The notes: generated by a model from the sequence alone, not told the origin. 64,000 bases of DNA from an uncultured delta proteobacterium (GCA_963785725.1 CAWAWS010000003.1:448001-512000); one strand, 5' to 3'. Positions 29,185 to 48,380 are shown, numbered from the stretch's first letter. Numbers and translations are program-made.

Positions 29185-30052
29185 ATGCCTCCGCGCGAGA
29201 CGAGCTGCAGGACGGCGATTTTGGTGCTCGGTTGCCGGCAGCCGATTCTATCAGCGCTGCATCCAGACCATCCGCGCCACCTGGGGCGCGACCGCGTCGA
29301 ATCAGACCGACATTTATTATGTGTATGGCGCCAAGAGCTCGGCCGGCGAAGCGCTGATCGACCTCTCGCAGCTCCTGGCGCTCCACGCGGCCGAGCCGCC
29401 ACGCCACGCGCTCACCGACGGCGACGTCTGGGTCTCGGGTGACGTCATCTTGTGCGGCGCGGCCGACGTGCTCCACGACCAACCTGACTGCATCCTGCGC
29501 AAGCGGCTGCTCGCGTTCGATTACTTGGCCAACGAGCGCGGCTACGACTTCGTCTACAACGTGTGCGCGTCGAGCTACGTCGATGTCGCCGCGCTCGAGC
29601 GATACGTCGCCGGCGTGCCGCGCTCCGGCGTCTACCACGGCGCGGCGGTCGTGCACGGCGCCAGCGGCTTTCCGTTCGTGTCCGGCGCCTCGTTCTTGCT
29701 CTCGCGCGACGTCGCCGCCGACCTGGCCAACAGCGCCGAGCGCATCCTCGCCACCTATCCCGAGACGATGCCCGACGATGTCGTGCTCGGACACTTCATC
29801 GCCGGCAAGTACGGCGGCGCTCCGGTCGCGGACATCGCGCGCCGCATCGCGACAGCCCAAAGAGCGACCGCCAACCAGACGTTCGTGGTGCCTCACGGCG
29901 GCGGCAGCATGGACTTCGTAACGAAGCCGGAGTTCCGACAGATTCCCGAGGAGCCCAACTTTCATTTTCATTTCCATTCGGGTCGCATGTGGGAGATGGA
30001 GAATTTCCACCGTCGCTTCTTCGCGGCCGATCCGAGCGACGGAACCGCATGA
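29185..30052 (+). pseudogene. GT-A-fold glycosyltransferase-like protein with an apparent frameshift near 29247
   Basis: TAILVLGCRQPI in one frame continues as YQRCIQTIRATWG...SSYVD...FVSGASFLLSRD...PDDV in another; may be a sequencing error. Confidence 0.6.
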
Positions 30053-31033
30053 AACGCGCGCTGGTGCTCGGCGGCGGCGGCTTCATCGGCGACCACCTGG
30101 TGCGCCGGCTTGCGCGCGAGCAGCGCTGGGTGCGCGCCGTCGACTTGCAGCGCCCGCGCCACGGCGCGACCTGCGCACGACGACTTCGTCGTCGGCGACC
30201 TGCGCGATCCGACCGTGTGCCGCGCCGCGCTCGGCGGCGGCTTCGACGAGGTCTATCAGCTCGCCGCCGACATGGGCGGTGCCGGCTTCATCTCGAGCGG
30301 CGACAACGACGCGGACATCATGCACAACTCCGCGCTCGTCAACCTCAACGTGCTCGACGCGTGCACGCGCGCTGCGGTCGGGCGCCTCTTCTACTCGTCG
30401 ACCGCCTGCGTCTATCCCGAGCGCAACCAGCTCGATCCCGACCATCCGAACTGCAGCGAAGACAGCGTCTATCCGGCCGCGCCCGATAGCGAGTACGGCT
30501 GGGAGAAGCTCTTCAGCGAGCGGCTCTACCTCGCTTACGCGCGCAACCACGGCCTGACCGTCCGCATCGCGCGCTTCCACAACATCTTCGGGCCCGACGG
30601 ATCGTGGAACGACGGCCGCGAAAAGGCGCCGGCCGCGCTCTGCCGCAAGGTCGCGCTCGCTGCCGACGGCGAGGCCATCGAGATCTGGGGCGATGGCCGG
30701 CAAACACGCTCGTTCCTCTATGTCGACGAGTGCCTCGAAGGCGTCTTGCGCCTGATGCGCTCCGACTGCTCGGAGCCGCTCAACATCGGCTCCGAGCAGA
30801 TGCTGACGATCGAGGAGCTGGCCCGCCTCATCATGGACATCGCCGGCAAGCAGCTGACGATCCGCTATATCCCCGGGCCGCTGGGCGTACGCGGCCGCAC
30901 GTCCGACAACCGCCTCATTCGCGCGCGACTCGGCTGGGCGCCGAGCGGCAACCTGCGCGACGGCTTACGCGCGACCTACGAATGGATCGCGGCGCAGATC
31001 GACGCGGCCAAGCAGGCGCCGCTCACGCGCTGA
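30049..31033 (+). pseudogene. GDP-mannose 3',5'-epimerase-like NAD-dependent epimerase with an apparent frameshift near 30172
   Basis: MKRALVLGGGGFIG is in a different frame from AADMGGAGFI, YGWEK and GREKAPAALCRK; ATGA overlap with the upstream gene. Confidence 0.8.
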
Positions 31034-31940
31034 GATCGAGACCGGCGAATTTGCCCCATTCCGCCACGGTGCGCGCCGTGCCGAGGCCGTAGCGACCGAG
31101 GCTGGCGACGTCGCCCTTGCCGAACACGATCGTCTGCAAGCGCTCGATCATGCGATCGGTGCGCTCCCTCTGCCAGCGGCCGGTCTTGGTCTCCCAGACC
31201 TTGTGCCGATAGCCGCCCGGATAGTTCGAGTAGTCGAGGTGCCACACTTGGATCTCGTCGGGCAAGAACATGTCCCAGCCGTGGGTGAACGTGCGAATCG
31301 AGAGCGGCCCTTCGTGACCCGCGTTGATCATCGCCGGATCCTCGGGCACCTCGTCGATCCAAGCGCCGTACGTAAAGACGAAGTTGCAACAGGTGAAGGG
31401 CGTCATTTGGTGCGGCTCGGATTTGCGCGCGCGCGACATCTGGATATCGAGCCAACCTTCGGGCCGCACGATCTCGCAGCTGATGAGCGGCACGCCATCT
31501 TCCGGCATCCCCGCCCACGGGAATACGACGTTGCGCGCCTCGTCGAAGGTGAACGGCGGTGAGCTGGTGGTGAGCAGCGGCTTCTTGCTCGGCTTACGCT
31601 CGAGCTGCGCGATCAGGTTTTCGTCCCAGCCCGGCGCGAACGCCGTGTGCGAGTCGATGAGCAGATGATAGCGCTCGCCGTTGTAGAGCTTCTGCACCTC
31701 GGCACGCGCCCATCCGTAGCCGAGGCTCGCTTGGAAGGGATATTTGCGAATGCGAAACTGCGGGTGATGGCGGTAGCGATCGAGCTGCTCGTGCTCATCC
31801 GCTTGCCAGCACAGGCCGAACGTCAAGCGATCGGGATGGGTGGCGCCGGCGAGCGCCGACTCGATGGTGAACGGCAGGTACAAGTCGCGATAGGCGGCAA
31901 TCGAGACGAAGATCTGCCGCTCTTTCGTCGCGTCCATCAC
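31023..31940 (-). CDS. GT60 Skp1-hydroxyproline-type alpha-GlcNAc transferase
   Basis: IFVSIAAYRD, GLCWQ, WAR, LIDSH...WDE, EVPEDP, IRTFTHGWD, WH. Confidence 0.85.
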   Translation of the reverse strand: MMDATKERQIFVSIAAYRDLYLPFTIESALAGATHPDRLTFGLCWQADEHEQLDRYRHHPQFRIRKYPFQASLGYGWARAEVQKLYNGERYHLLIDSHTAFAPGWDENLIAQLERKPSKKPLLTTSSPPFTFDEARNVVFPWAGMPEDGVPLISCEIVRPEGWLDIQMSRARKSEPHQMTPFTCCNFVFTYGAWIDEVPEDPAMINAGHEGPLSIRTFTHGWDMFLPDEIQVWHLDYSNYPGGYRHKVWETKTGRWQRERTDRMIERLQTIVFGKGDVASLGRYGLGTARTVAEWGKFAGLDLSA

Positions 31941-32920
31941 AGCGACCTCGCGAATCGGAGCGCGCCGATGCGCTCCAGGCCTCGAATGACCCGCTCGACG
32001 TCGGTTTGCAGCGTCCCCGTTGGCATCTCGTAACGTGCTTCGAGGGTGTGGCGAATCTCGGCAATGGTGCGCGAGCCGTCACAGATGTGCCAGATCGCCG
32101 CGCCCGAAGCGTTGAGCGAGATCGCGTCCGCGCGCCCGGGAATCTCCAGGAACAGCGAGCCCAAGAGCTGGCCCTCCCGCACGTCCGCTCGTTTGCATGG
32201 TCGGAGAGACGCCAGCTCATCGCCTTCGTCATCGGCTGGCGCGGCACCGTCGGCGGCATCGCGGCTCGTCGCGAGGTCCGCCACCGCGTGAGGGACACGC
32301 GCCTCGGCCGCGGCGATCACATAGGCGACCTCGTCCGCGTCGCCGCGCGCGCCGTCGCAGCGCGCCGTTTCCGCGCGAATGAGGCTCATCAGCTCGAGCC
32401 AGCGCGCGACGATCTTGCGCAGATCGGTCGAGTGGATGAGGACCGGCAGCCGAACCGCCGCCAGCTCGAGCTGGCGATCGACACAGAAACGGTCGAGGAA
32501 CGAAAATGCCGCGCCCAAACCGAACGGGCCCGCGCCCGCCGGACGGTCGAGCCAAGCGCCGGCCTTGGCCTGACCGGGCCGTATCTCATCCGCCATGGCG
32601 GCGCGGAAGTCGAAGGTCGGCTCGACGAGCAGGATGGTGCCCTGCACGTCCTCGGTGAAGAGCCATTCGAGCAGCCCTGCCGCTCTTTGATACGGCGGAT
32701 AGACGTCGTCCGTGTAGGGATGCGGTGACCAGGACATCGTCGTGACGACGCGCGCGTGCGGAGACGACGGCAGCGGCCGCGACGGGTCTTGCGCGACGAG
32801 CCGAACGAGCTCGCCCGGCTGCCGCACCCGATGCCAGGAGCGCGCGAGGCGCCCAACCTGTCCGTCGACGTCGCCGGCGGCGTCGTCATGGGACGACGTG
32901 CAGAAAACGGTGTAAATCAC
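31937..32920 (-). CDS. HPAT/SGT1-like glycosyltransferase domain fused to a C-terminal PqqD/RRE domain (copy A)
   Basis: YTVFC...QPGELVRLV...SPHPYTDDVYPPYQRAAGLLEWL; C-terminal LNASGAAIWHICDGSRTIAEI...DV...L...G. Confidence 0.75.
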   Translation of the reverse strand: MIYTVFCTSSHDDAAGDVDGQVGRLARSWHRVRQPGELVRLVAQDPSRPLPSSPHARVVTTMSWSPHPYTDDVYPPYQRAAGLLEWLFTEDVQGTILLVEPTFDFRAAMADEIRPGQAKAGAWLDRPAGAGPFGLGAAFSFLDRFCVDRQLELAAVRLPVLIHSTDLRKIVARWLELMSLIRAETARCDGARGDADEVAYVIAAAEARVPHAVADLATSRDAADGAAPADDEGDELASLRPCKRADVREGQLLGSLFLEIPGRADAISLNASGAAIWHICDGSRTIAEIRHTLEARYEMPTGTLQTDVERVIRGLERIGALRFARSL

Positions 32921-33945
32921 GCCTTCGCCTCTCCCTCGACGCGGCGCCGTCGTGCCGTCGCGCCGCCCGAAAAGTGGCCCCAGCCGAAGGTCGCGCGCGG
33001 GTCGACCTCGGTGCCGCGATGGAACCACATGGTGACGGCGAAGCGGCTGTCGGCGAACGCGCCCGATGGACAGCGCACCGGCAGCGCTTCGTGCAGCTCG
33101 TCGCTCGGGAACACGACCAGGCGATTGGCCAGCGGCGCGATGGCCGTGAAGGTCTCGGCCGCAGTCCGCGCGCCCGCGGCCTCGACGCGGTCATAGAGAC
33201 GCAGCTCGCCGCCGGCGAATCCGCGCGGCTGGCGATGCAAATAGTAAATACAGGTGAGCAGGCGCGGGATATCCGCAGCCTCGTCGGTGTGCGTCTTGAA
33301 ATAGTAGCCGTCCTTGGCCGCCGTCAGCTGCGACTCGAAGGCGGCGAGCGGGAAGATGGGCGTGCCCAAAATCTTGCCGAGCAGCGGAAGCCAAATCAGC
33401 AGCCGATTCTCGAGCAGCCGACTGTGCACCGACTCTTGGAAGTTCAAGATCGCCTGATTTTGTCGTACGCCGGGCTCGTAGGCGCTCACCGTTCCCGCTT
33501 GGAAGTGCGCTTCGGAGAAGAGCGCATAAGCGAGCAGCTCGTCATGCTCCGGCACGCTCAGGAAATCGTCGACGACGAAGAAGCGCGGACGGCACAGGCG
33601 CAGGGTCGGGCCGCTCTCGACTCCATCGTCGCGCCACCGCTCGTCTCGCGCGTCCATTGCCTGGCTCGGTGGCCGGAGAAGCTCGCCCTTCCTTGCGCCG
33701 CCAGGCCTGGGCGGCTCGAGGACGACGGGCGGATGGCTCTCGATGGAGACGAGGTTGGCCGTCTGAAAAGACCAGGCGACGCGGCCACCCGCGAGCGGAA
33801 GCTGGACGAGCTGGTTCTCGGCGTTGCGATTGGCGAGCGCGCCGAAGAGGACGGCCAGCTCCGGCGCGCCTTCTTGCAGGCTCACTTGGCGCGTGTCGCC
33901 GCCGGCCAAGCGAATCGTGAGCGTGATTTCGCGGGGCGCCGCCAT
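32917..33945 (-). CDS. Fe(II)/2OG oxygenase, prolyl-hydroxylase-like, with extra N-terminal domain (copy A)
   Basis: KTHTD, TCIYY, FAGGELRLYD, LHEALPV, SRFAVT. Confidence 0.85.
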   Translation of the reverse strand: MAAPREITLTIRLAGGDTRQVSLQEGAPELAVLFGALANRNAENQLVQLPLAGGRVAWSFQTANLVSIESHPPVVLEPPRPGGARKGELLRPPSQAMDARDERWRDDGVESGPTLRLCRPRFFVVDDFLSVPEHDELLAYALFSEAHFQAGTVSAYEPGVRQNQAILNFQESVHSRLLENRLLIWLPLLGKILGTPIFPLAAFESQLTAAKDGYYFKTHTDEAADIPRLLTCIYYLHRQPRGFAGGELRLYDRVEAAGARTAAETFTAIAPLANRLVVFPSDELHEALPVRCPSGAFADSRFAVTMWFHRGTEVDPRATFGWGHFSGGATARRRRVEGEAKA

Positions 33946-35942
33946 CACGCCGCGGCCTCCCAACCCGCCTCGCTGAAGCGCGCGACGATTCGCGCCGCTT
34001 CGTCCGGCTGGCTGAAGCGCAGCTGCGCCGCGGGCCGCTGTTCGACGAGCCGGCAGAGGTGGTTGACGGCGCGATCGCGGTCGATGCGAAAGTCGATCGA
34101 GGCGCCGATCAGCGCGGCGACCGCCTCCGCCGGCGACATGGGCGCGATGCGACTGTCGCGCGTATACAGCGGCGTTCTCTTGGCGATCACCAGTCGCTCG
34201 AGCGGAGCGGCAAAGCGGCCGGGCCCGGCTGCGCCTTCGGGCTGCGAGCGCGCGCACAGCGGCACGGCCACCAGGTCGGCCGCGCGGATGGCGATGACGC
34301 TGCGATCGATCAGCCGAAAGCCTTGCGCCTCGATGGCGCGCACCAACGCGTGGGTGGGATCGGCGATCTCACCCGCGATCACGAGGCCGCGCCCGCCTTT
34401 GACGAACGCCGCCGCCGAAAGCCACGTGTAGTTGTGGCGCGCGCGGGCGTAGATGCGGGCGATGTACCGCTTGAGCACGAGCGGCAGCTCCTTCGCGCCG
34501 CAGGCTATCTTCTGATCGCTGCCACGCTGCGCGATGCTGTAGGTCGTGTCGTGGCCGACGTCGAGGTTGGCGATCACGTTGCGCGCCTGCGTGGTCGCGT
34601 CCGCGCCCAGCTGCACGGAGAGCTGCTTGAGCAAGGCGGCGTCTTTGCACCACACGGCCACCTGCAGATCCTCGAAGCCGACATACACGACCGCTTCGTC
34701 TTTGGGCGCGAGCGCGGGCGCGCTCGGGCGCGCACCCAAAGACGCCGGCTTTGCCTCCGCGACCTTGACGAGCGCGCCCGTCTCGAGGACCTCGGGCAAG
34801 AGGAAGCTCTCGGGCCACTCGCGCATCCAGGCCGGGTTGAGCTGCTGGCTGACGCGATTCCACGAATAGGGCCCGGCGAAATCCTCGACCATCTCGCCGC
34901 GCTCGAGCAGGATGCACTCGCTGACGGCGTGGCGGCCGCGCTCGAGCTCCGCCTCCGCGTCCGGCAGCTCGTTCCACAAGTAGCGAAAGGCCTCGGGCTT
35001 GCCGCGATTGCCGCGATAGCGCTGGATCAGCCCGGTGAACGTGCTCGTCATCGTGCCCATGAACTCTTTCGCTTCCGCCGCCACGAGCTGCGACAGATAG
35101 GCGAGGCTCAAGCTGTCGCTGCGCGGCAGCTTGAGCAGCTCGCGGCCGTAGTGATCGAGGATGTGCCAATCGATGAAGTAGTGATGCGGATAGGCCTGCT
35201 TGATCGCCGTGAAGAAGGGATCGTCGCGCTCGTCGGTGAGGATGACCAACGGCTCCCTGCGGCTGAACAGCGGCTCCATCGCCTCGAGGGCTTCGGCCGG
35301 CTTGCGGTCGAGCGTCGTCACGCCGTAGGTGACCTTGAAGTCGCCGCGGCGGAAATGCACCGCGTTGAAGGCGCCGAGGTCGCGCGCCACGCGCTGGGCG
35401 AGCTCGGCGAACGGGCGCTTCGCCTGCATGTTCCGCAAGAGCCGGTACACCGATCGCCGCGTCTCGTGATCGAAATAGAATTGATAGCTGTAATAGCCGA
35501 GATTGGAGCGCTTATTCGCCTGCTCGGACAGCGCCAGCACGGGGATTTGCTCGTGCTCGCCCGTCACCGTCACCCAGTGGCGCCGACTGCGTGCGAAGGC
35601 GCGCGCATCGGACGAGGACACGTCGAGCGTCTTCGGAAAGTAGAGCGCGCAGTCCCACAGCGAGTGCTCGGTGAGCTCGCGGCGCGCCAGCCCAGCGAGG
35701 TCGACGGCGTCCGGCTCGACCCACGCCACCGGCATCTCGATGAGGTCGGTGACCCGGCTCGGAACGGCGTTGTCGACGCGACCGTCATAGCTGACGAGGT
35801 TGGCGGGTGGCGGAATATTGCCGTCGAGCACCAAGAGGCGATTGGTCAGATGCGCCAGGATCACGCCGATTTCGATCGACATGATGCCGTTGGACAGCCC
35901 CGAATTTCCCGACTGATAATTGGTGTACAGGAGATAGCGCAT
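33945..35942 (-). CDS. O-fucosyltransferase-like protein with a C-terminal degenerate HPr-kinase-like domain
   Basis: SGLSNG, AVHFRRGDF, ILTDE, SQLVAAEAKEFMGTMTSTFT; C-terminal AAAFVKGGRGLVIAG. Confidence 0.75.
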   Translation of the reverse strand: MRYLLYTNYQSGNSGLSNGIMSIEIGVILAHLTNRLLVLDGNIPPPANLVSYDGRVDNAVPSRVTDLIEMPVAWVEPDAVDLAGLARRELTEHSLWDCALYFPKTLDVSSSDARAFARSRRHWVTVTGEHEQIPVLALSEQANKRSNLGYYSYQFYFDHETRRSVYRLLRNMQAKRPFAELAQRVARDLGAFNAVHFRRGDFKVTYGVTTLDRKPAEALEAMEPLFSRREPLVILTDERDDPFFTAIKQAYPHHYFIDWHILDHYGRELLKLPRSDSLSLAYLSQLVAAEAKEFMGTMTSTFTGLIQRYRGNRGKPEAFRYLWNELPDAEAELERGRHAVSECILLERGEMVEDFAGPYSWNRVSQQLNPAWMREWPESFLLPEVLETGALVKVAEAKPASLGARPSAPALAPKDEAVVYVGFEDLQVAVWCKDAALLKQLSVQLGADATTQARNVIANLDVGHDTTYSIAQRGSDQKIACGAKELPLVLKRYIARIYARARHNYTWLSAAAFVKGGRGLVIAGEIADPTHALVRAIEAQGFRLIDRSVIAIRAADLVAVPLCARSQPEGAAGPGRFAAPLERLVIAKRTPLYTRDSRIAPMSPAEAVAALIGASIDFRIDRDRAVNHLCRLVEQRPAAQLRFSQPDEAARIVARFSEAGWEAAA

Positions 35943-36590
35943 CTATTCCCTCGTCGCCGTGCCTGCAGCAGTCGCGGGATGGTAGTGAACGAAGATTCCC
36001 GCGTAGAAATCGCCGTCGAGCGGATAGGGGCGACCATGCGCCAGACGCACGCCTTCATAGAGGACGTATTCGCCCGGCTCCATGTCGACTTGGTGCACTC
36101 GACCGTCGAGGCCCTCGATGTGCAGCGGCCAGCGCGACTCGAGCGCGTGATCGATGCAGATCGTCGAGCTGACGAAGTGCGGCTGGCGATCGACATGGTT
36201 GTACAGGAAGGTTCCGCGTTGATAGCAGCGAATGCCGTAACAGGCCGAGAGCTCGAGCAGCCTACCCGCCCACGCTTCGTGCAGCGGCTTGAGCTCGTCG
36301 GCGAGCTGCGCGTTGAACGCGTCCTCTTGGAATAGGAGCGCCGGAATCACGTCTTGGCGAGCGCTGCGAATTTCGTCGGAGGCGCGCTCGGGACGAAACT
36401 GCGCCAGGTTGTCGCGCAACTGCGTCACCAGTCGTGCGTGGATGGCCGGCGCCAGTCGCCCCTTTTGGAAGCCGAGCCCGAGACTGGGCGCCGCGGCCTG
36501 CATCTCTTCGCACTTCTTGCGTAGATACGGCGGCGCCGTCAGCTCCGTCAGCAGCGGCTGCCCCGGCTCGGCTTCGCGCGCGCGACTCAT
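35943..36590 (-). CDS. Fe(II)/2OG oxygenase, prolyl-4-hydroxylase-like
   Basis: YGIRCY, HVDR, WPLHIE, PGEYVLYEG, HGRP, FVHY. Confidence 0.8.
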   Translation of the reverse strand: MSRAREAEPGQPLLTELTAPPYLRKKCEEMQAAAPSLGLGFQKGRLAPAIHARLVTQLRDNLAQFRPERASDEIRSARQDVIPALLFQEDAFNAQLADELKPLHEAWAGRLLELSACYGIRCYQRGTFLYNHVDRQPHFVSSTICIDHALESRWPLHIEGLDGRVHQVDMEPGEYVLYEGVRLAHGRPYPLDGDFYAGIFVHYHPATAAGTATRE

Positions 36591-37915
36591 GCGTGCTCCT
36601 TCTGAAGGCGCCTCCGCGCGGCGAGGCCGAGGTCGAAAAATCGGCGCTCGAGGTCGGTCTTGGCCGAGGCGCGAAAGCTGGCCAGGTTCTCGGCGAGGAA
36701 GTCGCGATCGGCGAACAGCTGCTTGTTCCACGCCGAGCCCAAGAAGGGGCCGCCGCAGCCGTCGTTGACGTCGGCGTAATAGTGGAAGAACGAGCCGGCG
36801 GCGACCGACTCCTGCTGCGGCACCGGTGTCATGAACTGCGGCGCTTGCAAGAGCTCGTAGTCGACACGATTGGCCGTCAGCGCCATGGCAAAGCAGGCCA
36901 TCTCCGCCATCCACACGCGGCTATCGGGAAGGCCGCCGGTCTTGCCGAGCAAGTAGATGATCTGCGCGAAGCGGAAGCAGTCTTTGATGACCTTGTCGTG
37001 CTTCAAGGTCGCGCCGGTCATGAAGACGGTGACGGCGCCGCGTTTGAGCTCGGTTCGACAGCCGAGCGCACCGAGCAGCTGTTGCAGGTCGATGCCGCTG
37101 TCGTCGTCGCCGCGGCTGAGAAAGCGCGGGTCGCGCATGATCGCGTCCGCGGCCAAGGCATTTCCGACCGGGAACACCTCGCGGTTCAGGTCACCGTACA
37201 AGAAGACGTCGCTGTCCATGAGGCAGACGAGATCAGCGGCAGCGACCCGCGGCGCCATCGCGTTGAGGGCCTCGACGCGGTTGAGCGCCACGTAGCCGCC
37301 ATCATGCGACGAGAAGTCGATCTTGTGGCTGTGCGCGTGGTTTCGTCCCGTGAGCACGCCGACCCCGTAGAGCGAGACGAGACGCGTCAGCGCCGGCGAA
37401 AGCGCCGCATGATCGTTGCACACGACGAGCGTGATGTCCCAGCCGGGCGCGAGCTGACCGACGAGCGACTCGAGCAGAATGCCGAGCTGCCAATGAAAAT
37501 ACGGTTTGTCCTCGACTCCGAAGACGAAGCGCACGCGCGGCCGGAGCGCGACTCCCGTTACCGTGTCGTCCGCGAAGGCCACCTCGTCGGCGAGCGCGCG
37601 CTCGGATGAAGGCAGCGCCAAATCGATCATGCCGAGCTGCGCAAAGTGGAACAGCGCCTCGGTGATATCGGCCAGGATGCGAACGTTTCTTCCGTCGTAG
37701 CGCGTGCGCAGCGCGTCGAGCATGTCGAGCGCCGTGTGCGCACCGTCGCAGAGCTGCCAGACCGCGGCCGCCGACTCGTTCAGCGCCAGCGCGACCTCAC
37801 CATCGGGCGACAAGACCACGAGCTCGTTGGCGACGGGAAACAACGAAAAGCCCAGCTTCGCTTGCGGTCGCGCGCTCGAACGGCCGCGAGCACGCGCGCC
37901 CATGTCGTTCATCAA
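36587..37915 (-). CDS. N-terminal PqqD/RRE domain fused to an HPAT/SGT1-like glycosyltransferase
   Basis: LNESAAAVWQLCDG; YFHWQ, YVALNR, MDSD (DxD), WMAEM, FHYY, WNKQ. Confidence 0.8.
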   Translation of the reverse strand: MMNDMGARARGRSSARPQAKLGFSLFPVANELVVLSPDGEVALALNESAAAVWQLCDGAHTALDMLDALRTRYDGRNVRILADITEALFHFAQLGMIDLALPSSERALADEVAFADDTVTGVALRPRVRFVFGVEDKPYFHWQLGILLESLVGQLAPGWDITLVVCNDHAALSPALTRLVSLYGVGVLTGRNHAHSHKIDFSSHDGGYVALNRVEALNAMAPRVAAADLVCLMDSDVFLYGDLNREVFPVGNALAADAIMRDPRFLSRGDDDSGIDLQQLLGALGCRTELKRGAVTVFMTGATLKHDKVIKDCFRFAQIIYLLGKTGGLPDSRVWMAEMACFAMALTANRVDYELLQAPQFMTPVPQQESVAAGSFFHYYADVNDGCGGPFLGSAWNKQLFADRDFLAENLASFRASAKTDLERRFFDLGLAARRRLQKEHA

Positions 37916-37991
37916 TGACGTCTCTCCCGCGCAAGCTTCGGGTTTCGGGCCGCGACGATGCTACCGCGATTTCACGAGCCACGAGCGCAAA

Positions 37992-39005
37992 TTAAAGTAT
38001 CCAGCCGCGCGCCTGCGCCTCTTCGAACGTCACCGCGAGCGCCCAATCGGCCTCCGAGTGAATGGTCACGGGATCGGGATTCTTGCCGGTGAAGACATCG
38101 GGGTGCGCGCGTTTCCGCTGAAAATCGAAGCCGGAGTACAGCTCGTATTGGCGCAGCGTGCGCGCGCGTCCGAGGCTGTAGGGCCCGAGCGTGTGCCCCT
38201 CGTTCGCGTAAACCAGGCGGCGCAGTCGCTCCAGCGCCGTGGCGTTGCGCCGGCGAACGACCTCGTCGCCATGCTCCCAATGACGACGCGGCGGCGCGCC
38301 CCGGTGCAACATGTGCCAAGCCAGCACCTCGGTCGGCAGGAAGAAGTCGTATCCCCAGGTATAGCTGCGAACCGAGACGCTCAGCTCTTCGCCCCAATAA
38401 TAGTGGTCGGGATCCTGCGGCACCTCGACGTTCCATTGACCGCGCGTAAAGACGAAGCCGCCGTTGACGACGCGGGTTCTGCCCGGCTTTTGCTGGTTGG
38501 GCTCGCCGAAGCCGAACCACGGCGCCCAGCCGCCTTGCTCGGACCAGTCGCTGACGCGCGTCGTCGGCACGCCCATGTCCAAGCGGCGCTGCAGCGAGCC
38601 GTCGTCATCGTAGTAAAAGAGCGGCGAATTCATGGTCAGGATCGGCTTTTCGGCCGGGAGCGACTCGAGCATCTGGACCAAGCGCGCATCCCAGCCGGGC
38701 TCGAGCTTCATATGCGAATCGATCTGCAGCGTATAGGGCTCGCCGCGCCACTGCGACTGGGCCAGATTGCGCGCCCACGGTCCGCCTTGGCTCTCTTGGA
38801 CGGTGCGATCGATGAAGCGAAAACGCACATCGCGACGGAACCGCGACAGATCGAGCGGCGCGGCCGGATCGGCCTGCCAGCAGATGCCGAAGCGGAGCGC
38901 GGCCGGATGGCGCGCCATCGCCAGGCAGTCGTCGAGCGTGCGCGGCAGCTCCGGGTCGGCGTAGGCGGCAATGGCGACGAAGATCCGCTGGTCCGTCTTC
39001 ATCAC
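37992..39005 (-). CDS. GT60 Skp1-hydroxyproline-type alpha-GlcNAc transferase (second copy)
   Basis: IFVAIAAYAD, GICWQ, GPWARN, LQIDSH, EVPQDP, GEELSVSVRSYTWGYD. Confidence 0.85.
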   Translation of the reverse strand: MMKTDQRIFVAIAAYADPELPRTLDDCLAMARHPAALRFGICWQADPAAPLDLSRFRRDVRFRFIDRTVQESQGGPWARNLAQSQWRGEPYTLQIDSHMKLEPGWDARLVQMLESLPAEKPILTMNSPLFYYDDDGSLQRRLDMGVPTTRVSDWSEQGGWAPWFGFGEPNQQKPGRTRVVNGGFVFTRGQWNVEVPQDPDHYYWGEELSVSVRSYTWGYDFFLPTEVLAWHMLHRGAPPRRHWEHGDEVVRRRNATALERLRRLVYANEGHTLGPYSLGRARTLRQYELYSGFDFQRKRAHPDVFTGKNPDPVTIHSEADWALAVTFEEAQARGWIL

Positions 39006-39084
39006 GCGCGCTCGAGCTTACACCACCGAGCGGCATGATAGGCTGCAGCGTCTACCGCTCGCCAAGCGACGAGGACGACCTTCG

Positions 39085-41169
39085 ATGATGGACATCGTCG
39101 CGCGCGAGCCCGCGCAGCGCGCCACTTACAAGATCTATTTCCCGCTGTTCGATGACGTCGAGTCACTCAGCAACGAAGTGCGGCTCACCCATCAAGGGCT
39201 GCGCCAGCACCCGCACGTGCAGCTGGTCGACCGGCCGGAGCTGGCGGACTATCTCGTCCTCTGCCAGAACCACCTCGTCGCTCACAATCCGCATCACGCG
39301 CGCTTCGTCGCGATCAAGGACCAATACAAAGACAAGACGATCATGCTCGACTACGGCGACGATCCCCATGAGCTATGGGATCGGCACGACTTCCGCTGGC
39401 GGCTGTACTTCAAGCGCAGCGTGGTCGATCGGCGGCAAGGGCGCGTGCTCGGCTATGCCGGTCTGCCGGTCTGGCCGACGGCGTACGCGGTGGTCGACGA
39501 CATGTGCGAGCCGCCGCTGCCTCTCGACAGAGAACACCGTCACGCGCGCCCGCTCGACCTGTCCTGCCTGTTCGACGATAGCGTCCTCGAGAGTCCGTAT
39601 TTTCGGCTGGCCCGCGGGCGGCTGCTCAAGTTTGCCAAGCGTCTCGTGGCGACGCACGGTCTGAACGCGCAGCTCGGGACCGTCTCCGAATGCGGACCGG
39701 TCGGCCGGTCGGCCATCGATCCCAAATACAAAGAATGCCTGTGGGCCAGCAAGATCGTGTTGCACGCCAACCCGGATCGGTGGGAAGGCGATGCGCGGCT
39801 CTGGGAGGCGCTGGCTGCCGGCGCGCTGGTATTCGTCGAACGGTTGCATGCGCCCATCGCGCACCCGCTCGTCGATGGCGAGCATCTCGTCTTCTACGAT
39901 TTCACCGACGCGGGCATGGCGATCCTCGAGCGGCAGATCCTGCATTACCTGGCGAGCGACACAGAGCGCGAGCGCATCGCGGTGCAAGGAAGGCGGTTCG
40001 TGCTCGCGCATCATCGTTCGATTCACCGGGCCAACGAGATCATCAGTCGACTCGAGCAGCCGAGCGCCACCAAGGTCACGGCGAGCGCCAAGCCCGACAT
40101 CATCGTGGCCATGGCCAGCGGCTGCGCGCGCCTCGGCGACTACCGGACCTTCGTCGCGACCTTGCGCCGCAGCGGCGCCACCTGTCCCGTCTTTCTCGGC
40201 ATCGACGCCGGCTCCGCGTCCGCGCCGATCAAAAAGTACCTGCTCGAGCACGCCGTCAATTACTTCATGGTCGAGCCCATGACGGGTGGCGACCGCTTCG
40301 GCGAATACGCCAAGTGGCTACGCGACGTCGATTTTCGCTACGCGCTGCTGCTCGACTTCGGCGCCACCTACTTTCAACGCGATCCGTTCCTCGACGTCGA
40401 CGGCTACATGGCTGGTTGCGACCTTCTCGTCATGTCGGAGCTGGTCTTGGGGCGCAAGGCGGCGCTGCTGCGATTACTCGACGCGCTCGCCGCGCTCGAC
40501 CCGTCGCAGCGCGTCCAGCCGGACGTGCTGAGTCAGCTCGCACGGACAGGCCATCTCGACCATTGCGGTCGGATCCAGATCGAGCGCGCCGGCCAGAGCC
40601 TCGTCCATCAGCGTGAAGGACGAGTCGAGCCGTTGCGCGATCACGACGGCTGGCTGCTCGATGACGACGGCAACGTCTCCTCCGTCGTGCAGTGCGACAC
40701 GCGACTCCCCGACCTCGCGCCGTTCGTGTCGCGGTTGAGCGATTACGAGCAGCCGGACGAGCTGTTCGTGGCGAGCGGCAGCCGGCCCTATCGCGGGCAG
40801 AAATTCACGCTGTCGTCGCGCGCCGGGCTCAGGCCCGACGCAGTCTCGCGCCTGATCGCGCTGGCCAAGAGCATCTCCGTCGACAAAAAGCCGCTCTTCG
40901 TGCTCGACCGTCGTTTCCGGCGCGGCTTCGTCTTTGCTTACGGCGTGCTGAGCATCGATCTATTGGCGGAACCCGAGCCGCTGCGGCGCCGCTTCTTCCA
41001 CCCTTCGGACGACCGCAAGAAGTGCGCGCAATTCTGCGAGAAGCACGGTTACGCCGTCTTCCGCGTCGACGAGCACGCGCTCTTCGCGAGCGTCGGAGCG
41101 ACCGCGGATCGCGTGCTCACCGCGGACAGCTTTGCCGAAGCGCGCGCGCTCGCCGAGCGTTGGATCTGA
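39085..41169 (+). CDS. Multidomain glycosyltransferase (CgeB/Glyco_trans_1_2-like plus a second GT-like domain)
   Basis: YFKRS; ASKIVLH...RLWEALAAGAL...ERIAVQG; second domain FVATLRRSG...YFQRDPF. Confidence 0.65.
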   Translation: MMDIVAREPAQRATYKIYFPLFDDVESLSNEVRLTHQGLRQHPHVQLVDRPELADYLVLCQNHLVAHNPHHARFVAIKDQYKDKTIMLDYGDDPHELWDRHDFRWRLYFKRSVVDRRQGRVLGYAGLPVWPTAYAVVDDMCEPPLPLDREHRHARPLDLSCLFDDSVLESPYFRLARGRLLKFAKRLVATHGLNAQLGTVSECGPVGRSAIDPKYKECLWASKIVLHANPDRWEGDARLWEALAAGALVFVERLHAPIAHPLVDGEHLVFYDFTDAGMAILERQILHYLASDTERERIAVQGRRFVLAHHRSIHRANEIISRLEQPSATKVTASAKPDIIVAMASGCARLGDYRTFVATLRRSGATCPVFLGIDAGSASAPIKKYLLEHAVNYFMVEPMTGGDRFGEYAKWLRDVDFRYALLLDFGATYFQRDPFLDVDGYMAGCDLLVMSELVLGRKAALLRLLDALAALDPSQRVQPDVLSQLARTGHLDHCGRIQIERAGQSLVHQREGRVEPLRDHDGWLLDDDGNVSSVVQCDTRLPDLAPFVSRLSDYEQPDELFVASGSRPYRGQKFTLSSRAGLRPDAVSRLIALAKSISVDKKPLFVLDRRFRRGFVFAYGVLSIDLLAEPEPLRRRFFHPSDDRKKCAQFCEKHGYAVFRVDEHALFASVGATADRVLTADSFAEARALAERWI

Positions 41170-41182
41170 GTCGCTGCTGGCT

Positions 41183-42154
41183 CTATTGGGACGTCGCTCG
41201 ACGTCTTCGGCCGCGGCGCTCGTTGCGTTCGCTGCCCTCGCTGAACCAGGCCACCGTTTGGGCGAGCCCGCGCTCATACGAGACCGTGGGCTCCCAGCCG
41301 AGCAGTCGGCCCGCGCGGCTGATGTCGGGGCAGCGCTGCCGCGGATCGTCTTGCGGCAGCGGATGAAACTCGAGCCGCACGTCGCTGCCGACGGCGCGGC
41401 GCACGTCTTCGGCGACCGACAAGATGGTGCGTTCGTCCGGGTTGCCGAGATTGACGATGGGAACGACCTCGGCGCTCGACTTGGAAAACTCCATGAGCGC
41501 GCCTAAGCCGGCGACGAGATCATCGACGTAACAGAAGCTGCGCGTCTGGCTGCCGTCGCCATAAATGGTGAGCGGATCGCCGCGCAGCGCCTGCGTGATG
41601 AAGTTCGGGATGAGCCGTCCGTCGCCGCTGGCCATGCGCGGTCCGTAGGTGTTGAAGATGCGCGCGATGCGCACCTCGGTGCCGTATTGCGCGGCCCACG
41701 ACGTGGCCATCGCTTCGCCGCAGCGCTTGCCCTCGTCGTAGCAGCTGCGCACGCCGACGGGATTGACGCGGCCGTGATATTCCTCGCGCTGCGGGCTCAC
41801 GTCGGGATCGCCATAGACCTCACTCGTCGACGCGATGAGGAGGCGAGCACCGACCTCGCGCGCGCATTCGAGCGCGTGCATCGTGCCCATCACCGCCGTC
41901 TTGATGGTGCGAACGGCGTTGCGTTGGTAATGCACGGGCGACGCGGGGCAGGCGAGGTGCCAGATACGGTCGACCTCGAAGTGGAACGGCTCGCAGACGT
42001 CACCGCGAACGAATTCCACCGCGTCGGTGTCGAGGTTCGCACGGCTGCCGGTGAACAAGTTGTCGAAGCAGATGACCTCCTCATGCGCGCGCACCAACGC
42101 GTCGCACAGGTGCGACCCGATGAACCCAGCGCCGCCGAGGACGAGATGCCGCAT
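41183..42154 (-). CDS. uxs: UDP-glucuronate decarboxylase (UDP-xylose synthase)
   Basis: GGAGFIGSHL, HLACPASPVHYQ, ASTSEVYGDP, RSCYDEGKR, RIFNTYGPRM, DDPRQRCPDI. Confidence 0.92.
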   Translation of the reverse strand: MRHLVLGGAGFIGSHLCDALVRAHEEVICFDNLFTGSRANLDTDAVEFVRGDVCEPFHFEVDRIWHLACPASPVHYQRNAVRTIKTAVMGTMHALECAREVGARLLIASTSEVYGDPDVSPQREEYHGRVNPVGVRSCYDEGKRCGEAMATSWAAQYGTEVRIARIFNTYGPRMASGDGRLIPNFITQALRGDPLTIYGDGSQTRSFCYVDDLVAGLGALMEFSKSSAEVVPIVNLGNPDERTILSVAEDVRRAVGSDVRLEFHPLPQDDPRQRCPDISRAGRLLGWEPTVSYERGLAQTVAWFSEGSERNERRGRRRRATSQ

Positions 42155-43272
42155 CAGAGCCGCTCGAACCTGAGCGCGCCGATCTGCTCGAGGCGCCGCA
42201 AGACGGCCTCGGTATCGGGCTGCAGGCTGCCTTGCGGGAGCTCGAAGCGCGATTCGAGCGTTCGGTGGATGTCGGCGATCGTGTGCGTGCCGTCGCAGGC
42301 TTCCCAGATCGCGGCGCCGGAAGAGTCGAGCGCCAACGTGTCCGCGCGGCCGGGAATCTCGAGGAAGATCGAGCCGTAGATCTTGCCCGTGCGCACGCCG
42401 TCGCCGCGCAGCGGCCGCATGAACGTGAGCTCGTGTCGATGCGCGCGCCGTTCGCGCAGCTCGGCCAACAGCGTCAAGAGCTCGCGGCCCGTGCCCGCCT
42501 TTGCCGACAGCGGATCGACCGGATGATCCAAGCTGCCATCGCCGCTCGCATCCCACACGATCGCGCCGCTCGCCGACTCGACGGCGCGCTGGCAGTCGAT
42601 GATCGGCGCCGCGCTCTCGATGGCATGCGTGTCCGTCGCGAGCTCGGCCGCTGCGTGCGGAATGCGCGCCTCGGCGGCGGCGATCAGATAAGCCACGTCG
42701 TCGGCCGCGCGCAGCGGACCGTCTTCGGTGAGCGCGGTCTCGGCGCGAATCAGGCTCATCAGCTCCAGCCAGCGGGCCGCGATCTTGCGCAGATCGCTCG
42801 AGTGGATGATGAGCGGCAGCTTCACCGCGTCCAGCTCGAGCGCGCGATCGACGCAAAACTGGTCGAGGAACCCAAAGTCTCGGCCGAGGTCGAACGGACC
42901 GTCGCCGCGCGGGCGCTCCGGCCACGCCATGGCTTTGGCTTGGCCCGCTCGCGCTTCCTCGGTCACCGCCGCGCGAAAGACGCAGCGCGGCTCGACGAGG
43001 AGGATGGTCCCATCGACTTGCTCGCCGAACAGCCATTCGAGAATCGCGGCCGCTTTGTGGTACGGCGGATAGACGTCGCCCGTGTACGGATGCGGCGACC
43101 ACGCCGTCGTCGCCACGACGCGCGCGTGCCGATGCGTCGGCGCCGGCGGCGCTGGAGGGCGCGCGACCAGGCGCACCAGCTCGCCCGGTTGCCGCACGCG
43201 CGCCCACGAGAGCTCGAGCAGCTCGCACTGCCACTCGGGCTCACCGAAGCTGCAAACGACCGTGTGGATCAC
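42154..43272 (-). CDS. HPAT/SGT1-like glycosyltransferase domain fused to a C-terminal PqqD/RRE domain (copy B)
   Basis: HTVVCS...EWQ...QPGELVRLV...HPYTGDVYPPYHKAAAILEWL; C-terminal AIWEACDGTHTIADI. Confidence 0.78.
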   Translation of the reverse strand: MIHTVVCSFGEPEWQCELLELSWARVRQPGELVRLVARPPAPPAPTHRHARVVATTAWSPHPYTGDVYPPYHKAAAILEWLFGEQVDGTILLVEPRCVFRAAVTEEARAGQAKAMAWPERPRGDGPFDLGRDFGFLDQFCVDRALELDAVKLPLIIHSSDLRKIAARWLELMSLIRAETALTEDGPLRAADDVAYLIAAAEARIPHAAAELATDTHAIESAAPIIDCQRAVESASGAIVWDASGDGSLDHPVDPLSAKAGTGRELLTLLAELRERRAHRHELTFMRPLRGDGVRTGKIYGSIFLEIPGRADTLALDSSGAAIWEACDGTHTIADIHRTLESRFELPQGSLQPDTEAVLRRLEQIGALRFERL

Positions 43273-44255
43273 GAGCCCACGCTGCGCAGCTGCGGCGCGA
43301 CCACGCCGCAAAAGAAGTGGCCCCAGCCGAAGCGTGCCTGCGGATCGACCTTGTCGCTGGCGTGCAGCCAGACGGTGATGGCAAAGCGGCTGTCGGCGAA
43401 TTCGCCCGATGGACAGCGCACGGGCAGCGCTTCGTGGAGCTCATGGCTGGCGAACACGACCAGCCGATTGGCCACCGCCTGCACCGGCACGAACGACTCG
43501 GCGGCCCTGACCTCGGCGCCGCCTTCGACGGAGACGGCGTCGTAGAGCCGCAGCTCGCCGCCGCTGAAACCGCGCGGCTCGCGGTGCAAATAGTAGATAC
43601 AGGTCAGCGCCCGCGGCGTCGTCGGCGATTGGTCGGCGTGCGTCTTGAAATAGTGGCCGTCGCGCGCCGCGGTCAGCTGCGACTCGAGCTGCGCCAGCGG
43701 AAACACCGGCAGCCCCAAGCGCTTGGCGATGAGCGGGAACCAAATGAGCAGCCGATTTTCGAGCAGCCGACTGTGCACCGACGCGCCGAAATCGAGGATG
43801 ACCTGATTCTGCCGCACCTCGGGCGTGTAGGACTCGGTCACGGTGCCAGCCTCGAACTGCGCCTCGGAGGCGAGCGCATAGGCGAGCAGCTCGTCGTGCT
43901 CTTGTGGGCTCAGGAAATCGTCGATGATCACGCAGCGAGGACGACGCACGCTCAGCGACGAAGCGGAACGCGTGGCCTCGGGCTGAGCCGCCGCGTTTGG
44001 CTGCGCTGGGCTCAGCCGTTCGGGAGCGAGCACCACCGGCGGCTCACTCGTCACGGAGACGATCTTCGCCGTTTGAAACGACCAGGCGCGGCGGCCGCCG
44101 TCGAGCGGCAGCTGCAGGAACCGGTTCTCAGCCCACGGCGAGGCGAGCGCGGCGAACAGCGCCAGCAGCTCGGGCGCATCTTCGCGCAGCCGCACTTCAC
44201 GTGCTTCGCCGCTGACCAGGTTGATCGTGAGCGTGATGTCGCGCAGTGTCCCCAT
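43269..44255 (-). CDS. Fe(II)/2OG oxygenase, prolyl-hydroxylase-like (copy B)
   Basis: KTHAD, FSGGELRLYD, LHEALPV, SRFAIT; paralog of 32917-33945. Confidence 0.85.
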   Translation of the reverse strand: MGTLRDITLTINLVSGEAREVRLREDAPELLALFAALASPWAENRFLQLPLDGGRRAWSFQTAKIVSVTSEPPVVLAPERLSPAQPNAAAQPEATRSASSLSVRRPRCVIIDDFLSPQEHDELLAYALASEAQFEAGTVTESYTPEVRQNQVILDFGASVHSRLLENRLLIWFPLIAKRLGLPVFPLAQLESQLTAARDGHYFKTHADQSPTTPRALTCIYYLHREPRGFSGGELRLYDAVSVEGGAEVRAAESFVPVQAVANRLVVFASHELHEALPVRCPSGEFADSRFAITVWLHASDKVDPQARFGWGHFFCGVVAPQLRSVGS

Positions 44256-44351: not shown

Positions 44352-44954
44352 TTACGAAGTGGTCGCGCGCAGTCGAACGCGCGCAGTCGCGCGCGCCGCG
44401 CCGAGCGCGATGAAGCCGACCGAGCTCGACCCGCAGTCGGGCGCGCTCGCCATTCCCAACACCGGTGACACCGTTGGCGCCAGGGTCGGCGCGGGGACGC
44501 AGTGGCCGGCCATGGTCGGATGCGCGGTCGGCGCTCGCGTCGGCGGCGCGGTCGGCGCTCGCGTCGGTGGCGCAGTCGGCGCTGGCGTCGGCGGCGCCGC
44601 TGTCGGCGGCGCGGTGGGCGCCCGCGTCGGCGCCAGGGTCGGCAAATTGATCACGGAATGGTCGTCGCCGGCGCCACCGTAGTAAGCCAGCGCCGTGCCG
44701 GGCTTCAAGATCGTGCCCAGCCCCGCCGCCAGCTGCGCCATCGGCAGCGATAGGACCACCGGCGCCACCCACATCTTCTTCAGCGCGTCGCGGCGCGATG
44801 GATCGGCCGCCGGCTCGTCCGGCTTGGCGTCGGCCGCCTGCGCGTGCGCCGGCTCGGACGACTCCGCCGCGTCGTGCTGCTCCAGCTTCCTCTTGAGCTC
44901 CTCGAGCTCGGCGAGCAGCTGCTCTTTGGTCTTCTTGTCGCTACCGTCGCTCAA
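44352..44954 (-). CDS. Putative substrate/precursor: twin-arginine-like leader followed by Pro/Thr (PT) repeats
   Basis: TTG start with GAGGT Shine-Dalgarno; SRRDALKKMWVAPVVLSLP; TALA|YY; 13 PT dipeptides. Confidence 0.8.
   Translation of the reverse strand: MSDGSDKKTKEQLLAELEELKRKLEQHDAAESSEPAHAQAADAKPDEPAADPSRRDALKKMWVAPVVLSLPMAQLAAGLGTILKPGTALAYYGGAGDDHSVINLPTLAPTRAPTAPPTAAPPTPAPTAPPTRAPTAPPTRAPTAHPTMAGHCVPAPTLAPTVSPVLGMASAPDCGSSSVGFIALGAARATARVRLRATTS
44524..44595 (-). repeat. 24-nt tandem repeat, 3 copies, encoding APPT(R/P)APT
   Basis: gcggtcggcgctcgcgtcggcggc repeated with few mismatches. Confidence 0.8.
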
Positions 44955-44972: not shown

Positions 44973-45248
44973 TCACGGAGTGATTTCGACGAGCGCGTGC
45001 AAGCTCAGATAGCGCAGAAACGTAACCACATCGCGCTCGAGCACCGAACGATCCGGCGCGACGTAGTCACTTTCCAGCTGCTCGCACAAGGCGGCAATCG
45101 TCGACGCTTGCTCGAGGTGTTGCCAAATGGTCTTACCAGCTTCGTCGAGGCCGACATAGAGGCCGCGCTCGACGCTCATGAGAATGTGCCGGCCTCCGAC
45201 GTCGGCCGAAAGGAAGGGCTTGCGCGCGACTCGCGACGCCAAGCTCAC
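44973..45248 (-). CDS. Stand-alone PqqD/RRE peptide-binding protein
   Basis: ILMSVERGLYVGLDEAGKTIWQHLEQ...LCEQL...LERDVVTFLRYL; directly upstream of the putative substrate. Confidence 0.88.
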   Translation of the reverse strand: MSLASRVARKPFLSADVGGRHILMSVERGLYVGLDEAGKTIWQHLEQASTIAALCEQLESDYVAPDRSVLERDVVTFLRYLSLHALVEITP

Positions 45249-45356
45249 CCCCCCGCTGCCAGCGCCCGACCAGAGCATCCTGCTAGTGAAGGTACGCCAT
45301 GTCCTTGTGGTCAACAAGCGCGAACTGGCCTAGCATCGCGGGCACTGACTCGAATC

Positions 45357-46478: not shown

Positions 46479-47378
46479 CGGCGCGATGCGTTCGGCGACG
46501 AGCTGTCGCTCCGCTTCGGACAGCGGCGCGTGCGCGCGGGCGCGGAACGGCTGCTCGCTCTGCGCCTTGGAGTCGAAGCGCGCTCGCTCGCGCATGCGTT
46601 CGATGGCCGACGGCGCGAAGGTCAGCTGCGCATGGGGCGCGACCTCATCCCAGACGGCATCGGGCAGCCGCGCGTAATCGACCGTGCGCAAGGAAAGCTT
46701 GGCGGCGTGCGCGGCCGAGAACAGCGCTTCGATGGCGTGCAGCCGAAAGCGCGCCGCCGACATCGCCCGCGCCTCGTCGACCGTGAGGCCGAACAGCGCC
46801 AGCGCCGGATCGCCCGTCTCGCGCCAGCTCAGCCATGCCGCCGGCTGTGCGGCGTGCGAGGCCAGCACCCGCAACGGATCGCGCTGCAGCCAGATCATCG
46901 GCGTCGCCGGAAACGCGCGCTGAATCAGGTTCACCGCCAGCACGTTCCAGCTCGTGAGCTTGAGGACGAGGTGGCGTGCGCCGGCGCGGTTGCGGCCGAG
47001 CGCGCGCACGACCAAGCGAAACAGCTCCACCTTATCGTGCTGATCGAGGCGCGCCGCGACGATGTTGTTGACGACGTTGACTTCCGAGAGCACGACATAA
47101 TCGGGCAGCGCCGCCAACATCTGCGCCAGCAAGGTCGACCCGCAGCGCGACACTTGAAAGATGAACAGCGACGGCTCGAGCGTCGGCCGCTCGTCGAGCG
47201 CGCGCAGCACGTCGACTCCGGTCAGCGCCTTGAGCTTGTCATTGGGCAGTCGCGCCAGCGTGTCGCGAAAGAACGGCTCGACGAAGCGCACGTCGCGCAG
47301 ATCGGCCCAGGTGAACAGCGGCTCGGGCAGGAATCGCACCGCGATGGGCGTGCAGTGCGCAGCGTCGTGCACGGTCAC
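46410..47378 (-). CDS. Sulfotransferase-like protein
   Basis: EPFF, FIFQVSRCGSTLL, LSE, KLTSW, RDP..VLASH. Confidence 0.75.
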   Translation of the reverse strand: MTVHDAAHCTPIAVRFLPEPLFTWADLRDVRFVEPFFRDTLARLPNDKLKALTGVDVLRALDERPTLEPSLFIFQVSRCGSTLLAQMLAALPDYVVLSEVNVVNNIVAARLDQHDKVELFRLVVRALGRNRAGARHLVLKLTSWNVLAVNLIQRAFPATPMIWLQRDPLRVLASHAAQPAAWLSWRETGDPALALFGLTVDEARAMSAARFRLHAIEALFSAAHAAKLSLRTVDYARLPDAVWDEVAPHAQLTFAPSAIERMRERARFDSKAQSEQPFRARAHAPLSEAERQLVAERIAPLYRTMRGDEAEPRELAERALDR

Positions 47379-47396
47379 GAGGTCAGCCGCCCGGCC

Positions 47397-48369: not shown

Positions 48370-48380
48370 GTCTCGTTCGC

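Follow-up and report, generated by a model that had tools for sequence, protein, structure and literature searches.

A conserved bacterial operon of glycosyltransferase–RRE fusions predicted to glycosylate a Pro/Thr-rich exported protein

Plants and green algae glycosylate Pro-, Thr-, Ala- and Ser-rich substrates with the glycosyltransferases (GTs) SGT1, a peptidyl-serine alpha-galactosyltransferase (family GT96), and HPAT1–3, hydroxyproline O-arabinosyltransferases (GT95). PMC4738400 and PMC8476585 describe both families, and hydroxyproline O-glycosylation itself, as plant-specific, PMC8476585 predicts a new fold for GT96, and SGT1 is given as a serine galactosyltransferase in PMC8012813. Here we analysed a 64,000-nucleotide stretch of DNA from an uncultured delta proteobacterium (GCA_963785725.1, CAWAWS010000003.1:448001-512000; the whole stretch is called the window below, and positions are counted from its first letter). 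It carries an operon with three proteins that combine a GT domain with a RiPP recognition element (RRE), next to a gene for a repeat-rich precursor protein. The operon has in common with the plant and algal enzymes a homologous GT-A domain, the motifs WQ, N-K, DxD, WxxEM and HY, and a Pro/Thr/Ala/Ser-rich substrate. The window proteins differ from them in being bacterial, cytoplasmic and RRE-fused; one type of fusion (GT-RRE) is without the catalytic motifs, the other (RRE-GT) falls outside as a remote outgroup, and the sister group of the plant clade includes neither of them.

Three further systems resemble this locus. In the protist Skp1 pathway, as here, a cytoplasmic PhyA-like prolyl 4-hydroxylase (P4H) stands beside, or is fused to, a GT60 enzyme of family PF11397; Skp1, however, is a folded protein modified at one proline, whereas here the target would be a multi-site repeat protein destined for export and addressed through an RRE and a leader. 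The precursor is unrelated to Skp1 by inspection. In the glycosylation of Gram-positive serine-rich repeat proteins (SRRPs; GtfA/GtfB, accessory Sec), a long-leader repeat surface protein is O-glycosylated in the cytoplasm with the help of a non-catalytic GT partner; export follows modification, and the protein has a C-terminal anchor. The working logic is the same, but the present locus uses unrelated enzymes (GT-A, GT60), RRE targeting, a prolyl hydroxylase and a Tat-like signal. RRE-dependent pathways for peptides made on ribosomes and modified after translation (RiPPs; lasso B1 with YxxP, StsC with WxxP) likewise have a PqqD-family RRE and an adjacent precursor gene with, as in StsC, a WxxP leader. 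They differ from the locus studied here, in which the leader would serve at the same time as a twin-arginine signal, the product resembles a repeat protein that carries sorting tails, and the enzymes belong to the eukaryotic type for hydroxyproline (Hyp) and O-glycosylation.

WxxP is a tested and validated RRE recognition motif according to PMC12710340. PMC7470986 refers broadly to RRE–glycosyltransferase fusions, and PMC12710340 to such fusions with PF00535; the RRE–glycosyltransferase cluster of PMC7470986 and the present one could overlap. Full-text literature searches, which reached few subscription papers, returned no description of the operon. Its parts come from known families, and the system as a whole fits no described family. 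Judged from the sequences, the operon probably encodes RRE-directed cytoplasmic O-glycosylation of Hyp and Thr in a surface protein resembling arabinogalactan proteins (AGPs) or mucins, exported by the twin-arginine translocation (Tat) pathway.

The fusions, the operon and the precursor

The original prediction placed three GT/RRE fusions in the window, and all three open reading frames (ORFs) were found where it had put them, on the minus strand, with PqqD (PF05402) scores exceeding the Pfam cut-off. GT-RRE_a (31937-32920, 327 aa; C-terminal PqqD, E 1.9e-12) is a short candidate pseudo-GT that precedes the gene GT60_a, a conserved position. GT-RRE_b (42154-43272, 372 aa; C-terminal PqqD, E 3.2e-10) is a duplicated copy, also a candidate pseudo-GT, with a GT-A domain of the SGT1/HPAT superfamily. 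RRE-GT (36587-37912 or 37915, 441 aa; N-terminal PqqD, E 2.4e-11) has a divergent GT-A domain of the same superfamily. No signal or transmembrane segment was seen by eye in any of the three.

The two GT-RRE copies, 63% identical, are a local duplication: a segment of 1741 bp comprising P4H and GT-RRE is repeated at 71% identity, and the two P4H proteins are 59% identical. In whole-protein hhalign comparisons of GT-RRE with RRE-GT the RREs alone were matched (probability 98.7%), while the GT domains compared on their own aligned weakly (probability 1.4%, E 0.037). The proposal that two fusion orders reflect repeated selection through domain shuffling was not supported. Each order corresponds to one of a pair of distantly related genes that are fixed in a single operon, and their GT domains align only weakly.

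Two locus scans (16 and 33 overlapping loci) together gave 36 distinct loci with an RRE-GT gene. The recurrent gene order is precursor / RRE-GT / small 2-oxoglutarate (2OG) oxygenase / O-FucT / P4H / GT-RRE / GT60, and it was found in Myxococcota, Binatia, Acidobacteriota and Alpha-, Beta- and Gammaproteobacteria, with the operon also present in records (NZ_) of Luminiphilus syltensis, Elongatibacter sediminis and a Tepidamorphus sp. The small 2OG gene is present at 35 of the 36 loci, O-FucT and GT60 at 33 each, P4H at 29 and GT-RRE at 28; most missing genes fall near contig ends. The cluster is single-copy in the source genome. As RRE-GT was not found in the 60 related genomes searched, we read the cluster as an island of patchy distribution and rejected vertical conservation.

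In the window, the following enzymes that accompany the fusions are encoded on the minus strand. P4H_b (43269..44255; PF13640, E 8e-17), the duplicated copy, and P4H_a (32917..33945; PF13640, E 1.4e-18) each consist of an unannotated domain of ∼75 aa, here called X, followed by a 2OG-Fe(II) oxygenase of the PhyA/PHD type that resembles prolyl hydroxylases. The best sequence match of P4H_b in the Protein Data Bank (PDB) is Dictyostelium PhyA (6T8M, E 7.3e-9), the partner of Gnt1, a GT60 enzyme that modifies Hyp (PMC6939170). GT60_b (37992..39005, E 5.5e-44) and GT60_a (31023..31940, E 1.4e-42) are PF11397 GlcNAc transferases of the Gnt1/TcOGNT family, and GT60_a is, from co-occurrence, the candidate partner of the pseudo-GT-RRE. 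The small 2OG-Fe(II) oxygenase-like protein (35943..36590) has HxD...H by eye and Atlas leads to the 2OG clan (0.89-0.91), with no Pfam match. The O-FucT-like GT with a degenerate HprK-related C-terminal domain (33945..35942) matches PF10250 (E 3.8e-4) and TIGR04352 (E 5.8e-5), both below cut-off.

The precursor gene (44352..44954, minus strand, 200 aa) is the sole copy in the genome. Its product begins with an amphipathic helix and a leader, SRR..WVAPVVLSLP, that contains both a twin-arginine motif and WxxP, followed by a putative signal-peptidase site (ALA-Y), PT/AP repeats and a two-Cys tail of the Myxococcota type. Precursors are present at 32 of the 36 loci (31 by profile and one, L051, by eye), a count that is partly circular since the leader profile was made from 16 of the counted precursors. 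Of the four remaining loci, three offer <300 bp of DNA upstream and the other is a contig of 5.6 kb. In the set of 33 precursors that includes the window's, RR occurs in 31, KR in two and an AxA-type site in 27; WxxP occurs in 33/33, being the motif used to find them. The regions after the leader are 45-91% P/A/S/T (14 computed), with repeats equally rich in Thr and Pro, and the cores, between about 40 and 250 residues long, have no motif in common. TatC was found in the source genome.

Ten of the 33 precursors end in PVE[LI]xxFx[IV] before the stop, seven have the Myxococcota-type tail (the window's included), about seven have a hydrophobic helix, two have FxFDD and the rest none. The scripted 'hydrophobic tail' class (eight members) included two false cases, L013 and L047, in which the leader itself was scored, and missed L042 at the threshold. 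The PVE[LI]xxFx[IV] tail ends 15 proteins in one genome and five in another (reversed control 0), while in a further three genomes the precursor is its sole carrier; eight of the 18 carriers other than precursors have signal-peptide-like N-termini by eye. As a C-terminal tag, PVE[LI]xxFx[IV]x-stop recurs on proteins that look secreted (L053-L075, G061-G065), and one Acidobacteriota genome has 15 of them. More Thr/Pro-rich proteins (L059, L071, L074) end in this tag, and L071 has a twin-arginine motif. One locus, L009, has two precursors with different tails, and a second precursor of the L008 genome lies at L050.

Superfamily membership, catalytic motifs and structure models

Homology of the GT domains to the GT95/GT96 superfamily (HPAT/SGT1, PF23452), proposed at the outset from motifs, was borne out by profile searches for both fusion types. 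We found 99 relatives of GT-RRE, of which 15 were already annotated with PF23452, and on rescan 32 of the 38 aligned relatives matched this family (E<=0.5, best 9.7e-8). A PF23452 scan of the genome gave no match and was uninformative, as the control set failed too. A GT-only profile of GT-RRE retrieved 643 representatives at E<=1e-3, and 70 of the 150 listed were scanned. From 94 near-full domains we removed 17 RRE-fused or related rows, and the resulting RRE-less profile of 77 domains scored the window's RRE-GT at 42.3 bits (P 3e-15) and 121/121 members of its family at 34.8-59.5 bits; reversed copies reached at most -1.0 bits (111 reversed copies reported). Scores of GT-RRE on this profile are circular and were not used.

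Among the 70 scanned proteins were green-lineage SGT1-type proteins from Coleochaete (P0276) and Raphidocelis (P0350) and one from a cluster that includes a Micromonas protein (P0331). The GT-RRE profile reached the Coleochaete protein at E 1.8e-36 and P0270, which we take to be a repeated-domain SGT1-type plant protein, at E 4.9e-38. Many others were RRE-less and apparently prokaryotic, one of them from a planctomycete. No high-scoring HPAT was seen among the 70 of 150 listed matches scanned, the best PF23452 match (E 2.7e-40) being of the SGT1 type. In single polypeptides the SGT1-like domain is fused with GT60 and P4H (P0239), with O-FucT, or with an RRE and P4H; a locus search for P0239 gave one short contig, on which no precursor was seen. 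A third type of RRE fusion, with the RRE between two GT-like domains, occurs at L008:6289-8400 and L009:12314-14140, and P0228 has the order GT-RRE-GT77. By these comparisons GT-RRE and RRE-GT both belong to the HPAT/SGT1 superfamily, yet they are far apart from each other, and GT-RRE is the nearer of the two to SGT1-type proteins despite its loss of motifs.

Trees were built with FastTree (116 rows) and, from 51 rows chosen from those, with IQ-TREE (LG+G4), with no true HPAT among the rows. GT-RRE groups with RRE-less GT60/O-FucT fusions in a bacterial clade (98/91), separate from the green-lineage SGT1-type clade, whose sister is a set of three membrane-anchored proteins (100/99). These three (P0322, P0326 and P0330) are compositionally odd and have an N-terminal membrane segment. 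RRE-GT is a long branch and was used as the outgroup. Neither type branches inside the green-lineage SGT1 clade, and GT96 proper does not include them; on these trees both are cousins, not ancestors, of plant SGT1. The suggestion that the fusions bear on the origin of plant GT95/GT96 is accordingly narrowed to an indirect one: prokaryote-like sequences are widespread in the family and plants may have drawn their enzymes from a bacterial source, though the RRE fusions would not be the donors.

The motifs first listed for the fusions turned out to be a composite, QPG..RL and HPYT.D.YP occurring only in GT-RRE, and W..EM and DxD only in RRE-GT. In GT-A enzymes DxD binds the metal–nucleotide sugar. 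The window's RRE-GT has WQ, DSD, WMAEM and HYY all intact, and in its family both DxD and Wxx[ED]M are found in 120/121 members; the corresponding figures in the selected set of 77 RRE-less domains are 76/77 and 70/77. Among the GT-RREs, DxD is found in 2/99 and WxxEM in 0/99. GT-RRE_a and GT-RRE_b have EPT and EPR at the DxD site and GDADE and RAADD at the WxxEM site, and GT-RRE_a is without WQ, DxD, WxxEM and HY and has a deletion of ∼45 aa, a further loss seen in about 9/99 GT-RREs. The RRE and the GT core of the GT-RRE family are similarly conserved (0.65 and 0.65-0.69). Because DxD and WxxEM are lost, GT-RRE is probably a pseudo-enzyme, and RRE-GT, its motifs being intact, is a probable active transferase. 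Thus only one of the three window fusions is likely to be active, and the activity originally implied for all three was not upheld.

The alphaproteobacterial GT-RREs retain DPD and WESDM. The motif-less GT-RRE is accompanied by GT60_a, the second GT60, at 23/23 loci, and the intact homologues are without GT60_a at 6/6 loci; L037 is truncated, and L044 retains DSD only. GT-RRE may have become a leader-binding adaptor for GT60_a.

AlphaFold models of RRE-GT (pLDDT 85.7) and GT-RRE_b (pLDDT 90.6) both contain a GT-A domain whose nearest structures are of the GT8 type (glycogenin, Z 14.8, rmsd 3.6-3.8, 225-231 aligned); Foldseek listed GT6 structures and the like only. In both models the RRE is nearest to lasso B1–leader complexes (6JX3, Z 12.3-12.7, rmsd about 2, 85 aligned). 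When the PDB was searched by sequence, nothing useful came up for an SGT1-type protein, for the GT-RRE profile, for GT60_b or for the small 2OG protein. A model of the RRE of RRE-GT with the leader scored 0.47 against 0.01 for the best control, with >=95% contact agreement between runs and a partner pLDDT of at least 59. The benchmark mark was reached by 116/157 solved and 2/215 mismatched pairs, of which 18/157 and both mismatches stood at <=0.60. Binding of the leader by the RRE thus has weak model support, and leader-directed glycosylation, as first proposed, is plausible, with a WxxP-leader precursor at most loci on its side.

The proposed pathway and its alternatives

We propose that this horizontally spread operon yields a bacterial glycoprotein rich in Hyp and Thr. 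In the cytoplasm, the RRE domains would bind the WxxP leader of the precursor, and the PhyA-like oxygenase would hydroxylate prolines of the PT/AP repeats, as expected from homology. The GT60 enzymes would place GlcNAc on Hyp and/or Thr, and RRE-GT, with its intact active site, would add another sugar. Decoration of the glycans would follow, by the O-FucT-like protein and by accessory GTs, sulfotransferases and methyltransferases that vary between loci. GT-RRE, which has lost its catalytic residues in this lineage, would bind the leader as an adaptor, and the neighbouring GT60_a is the enzyme that it most likely serves. The twin-arginine signal would lead to Tat export with cleavage by signal peptidase at AxA, and the lineage-specific C-terminal tag would handle surface placement of the AGP/mucin-like coat protein. 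We put forward more tentatively the full form of this proposal, in which bacteria have a hydroxyproline-rich glycoprotein pathway of their own: the twin-arginine signal doubles as the RRE leader, PhyA, GT60, SGT1/HPAT-like and at some loci GT77/GT92/GT47-like enzymes build Hyp-glycans before export, the pseudo-GT-RRE is an adaptor, and the X domain docks further enzymes.

Several observations weigh against the proposed pathway. The precursor count is partly circular, as noted above. None of 15 precursors matched the Tat-signal hidden Markov models of NCBIfam, one of 15 matched IPTL-CTERM, below cut-off, the tail of the window precursor is weakly hydrophobic, and exosortase was not found in the 88%-complete source genome. 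PF23452 gave no direct match in the window's own three fusions in the Pfam scan and was matched by just 2/42 RRE-GTs, at E>=0.11. The 23 and six loci of the GT60_a pattern are not independent and probably reflect one loss event, and at L045 and L051 an RRE on the motif-intact homologue is not established. The RRE–leader score may reflect likeness to solved lasso RRE–leader structures. P4H matches PhyA only modestly (E 7e-9), and substrates of another kind, EF-Tu for example, are on record for bacterial PHD-like enzymes (PMC7864055). A Hyp-linked sugar is not required, because GT60 includes, besides Gnt1, which requires Hyp, the trypanosome polypeptide GlcNAc-transferase (PMC6939170).

The last point also favours an operon with the same leader logic that places sugars on Thr/Ser only, as in mucins or SRRPs, with oxygenases that act elsewhere or leave Hyp unglycosylated. 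Thr is as abundant as Pro in the repeats, and the nearest eukaryotic relatives are SGT1-type, SGT1 being a serine galactosyltransferase. We find this reading unlikely, since 29/36 loci keep a PhyA-like P4H, and P0239 joins it to GT60 in one polypeptide, the pairing of Skp1 Hyp-GlcNAc synthesis.

Less probable still is a classical RiPP pathway, in which the precursor would be cut to release a small diffusible glyco- or sulfopeptide and no surface protein would be made. The RRE folds match lasso B1 proteins, and some precursors are short with no recognisable tail (L012, L013, L015, L047). Against this, the cores vary in length without a common motif, and many precursors end in a hydrophobic helix or in the tag common to secreted proteins. 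Scans of window genes and of 29 of 114 candidate neighbour ORFs showed neither a peptidase nor an ABC exporter.

The version of the original prediction in which all three fusions are active HPAT/SGT1-like transferases, shuffled repeatedly near the root of plant GT95/GT96, appears very improbable to us. It draws on the membership of all three in the superfamily, on the DPD and WESDM of alphaproteobacterial GT-RRE, and on at least two fusion events with RREs that are alike; the near-absence of DxD and WxxEM from GT-RRE, with the further deletion in some, the great distance between the two GT types and their position apart from the green SGT1-type clade speak against it. A polysaccharide or small-molecule glycosylation island with the PT-rich gene as passenger or scaffold, suggested by the many accessory sugar-nucleotide, sulfotransferase and methyltransferase genes, is scarcely credible with two RRE fusions and a WxxP precursor at 32/36 loci.

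Accessory genes and implications

The remaining genes of the window cluster are accessory. A UDP-glucuronate decarboxylase-like enzyme (41183..42154, minus; PDB 4GLL, E 4.7e-103) may supply UDP-xylose, and an accessory glycosyltransferase-like protein (38971..41169, plus; PF13524) has homologues at several loci. A GDP-mannose 3,5-epimerase-like gene (30049..31033, plus; PDB E 1e-86) has a frame shift near 30170, a break or assembly error. The adjacent 243-aa protein (29321..30052, plus), without a Pfam or NCBIfam match, recurs beside the cluster at L001, L010, L011, L013, L024 and others. A block of accessory genes (44973..49824) encodes a stand-alone lasso-type PqqD, a JmjC oxygenase, three sulfotransferase-like proteins, an Asp/Asn beta-hydroxylase-like protein and a CpxP-like protein. 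PqqD and JmjC likewise flank the precursor at L004 and L010. The substrate of the PqqD, JmjC, Asp-hydroxylase-like and sulfotransferase-like genes could be the cluster's precursor or another protein. Other loci add GT77-, GT92-, GT47- and GT8-like, sulfotransferase and methyltransferase genes, among the neighbour ORFs scanned.

The X domain opens both P4Hs of the window (33720-33945 and 44020-44255, minus) and recurs at L032:6294-7874, L032:19199-21235, L038, L044 and L049 and in the RRE-less fusion P0239; its carriers elsewhere are accessory proteins of GT77-like and sulfotransferase/methyltransferase type. The domain may provide a second means of docking, perhaps to the N-terminal helix of the precursor. 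An Atlas search with it gave a best score of 0.84, a lead only. A 2220-aa Cys-rich repeat protein with a hydrophobic, basic C-terminal tail (22403-29065, plus) adjoins the cluster, and antisense shadows of similar repeats were seen beside the L010 and L011 clusters.

Soluble bacterial homologues that are confidently modelled as GT-A are tractable structural stand-ins for GT95/GT96, as no solved structure was matched by sequence. If the proposed pathway is true, a leader-addressed cytoplasmic kit for Hyp/Thr glycosylation could enable extensin- or mucin-type glycosylation in bacteria, and the RRE logic would be extended from small peptides to surface glycoproteins.

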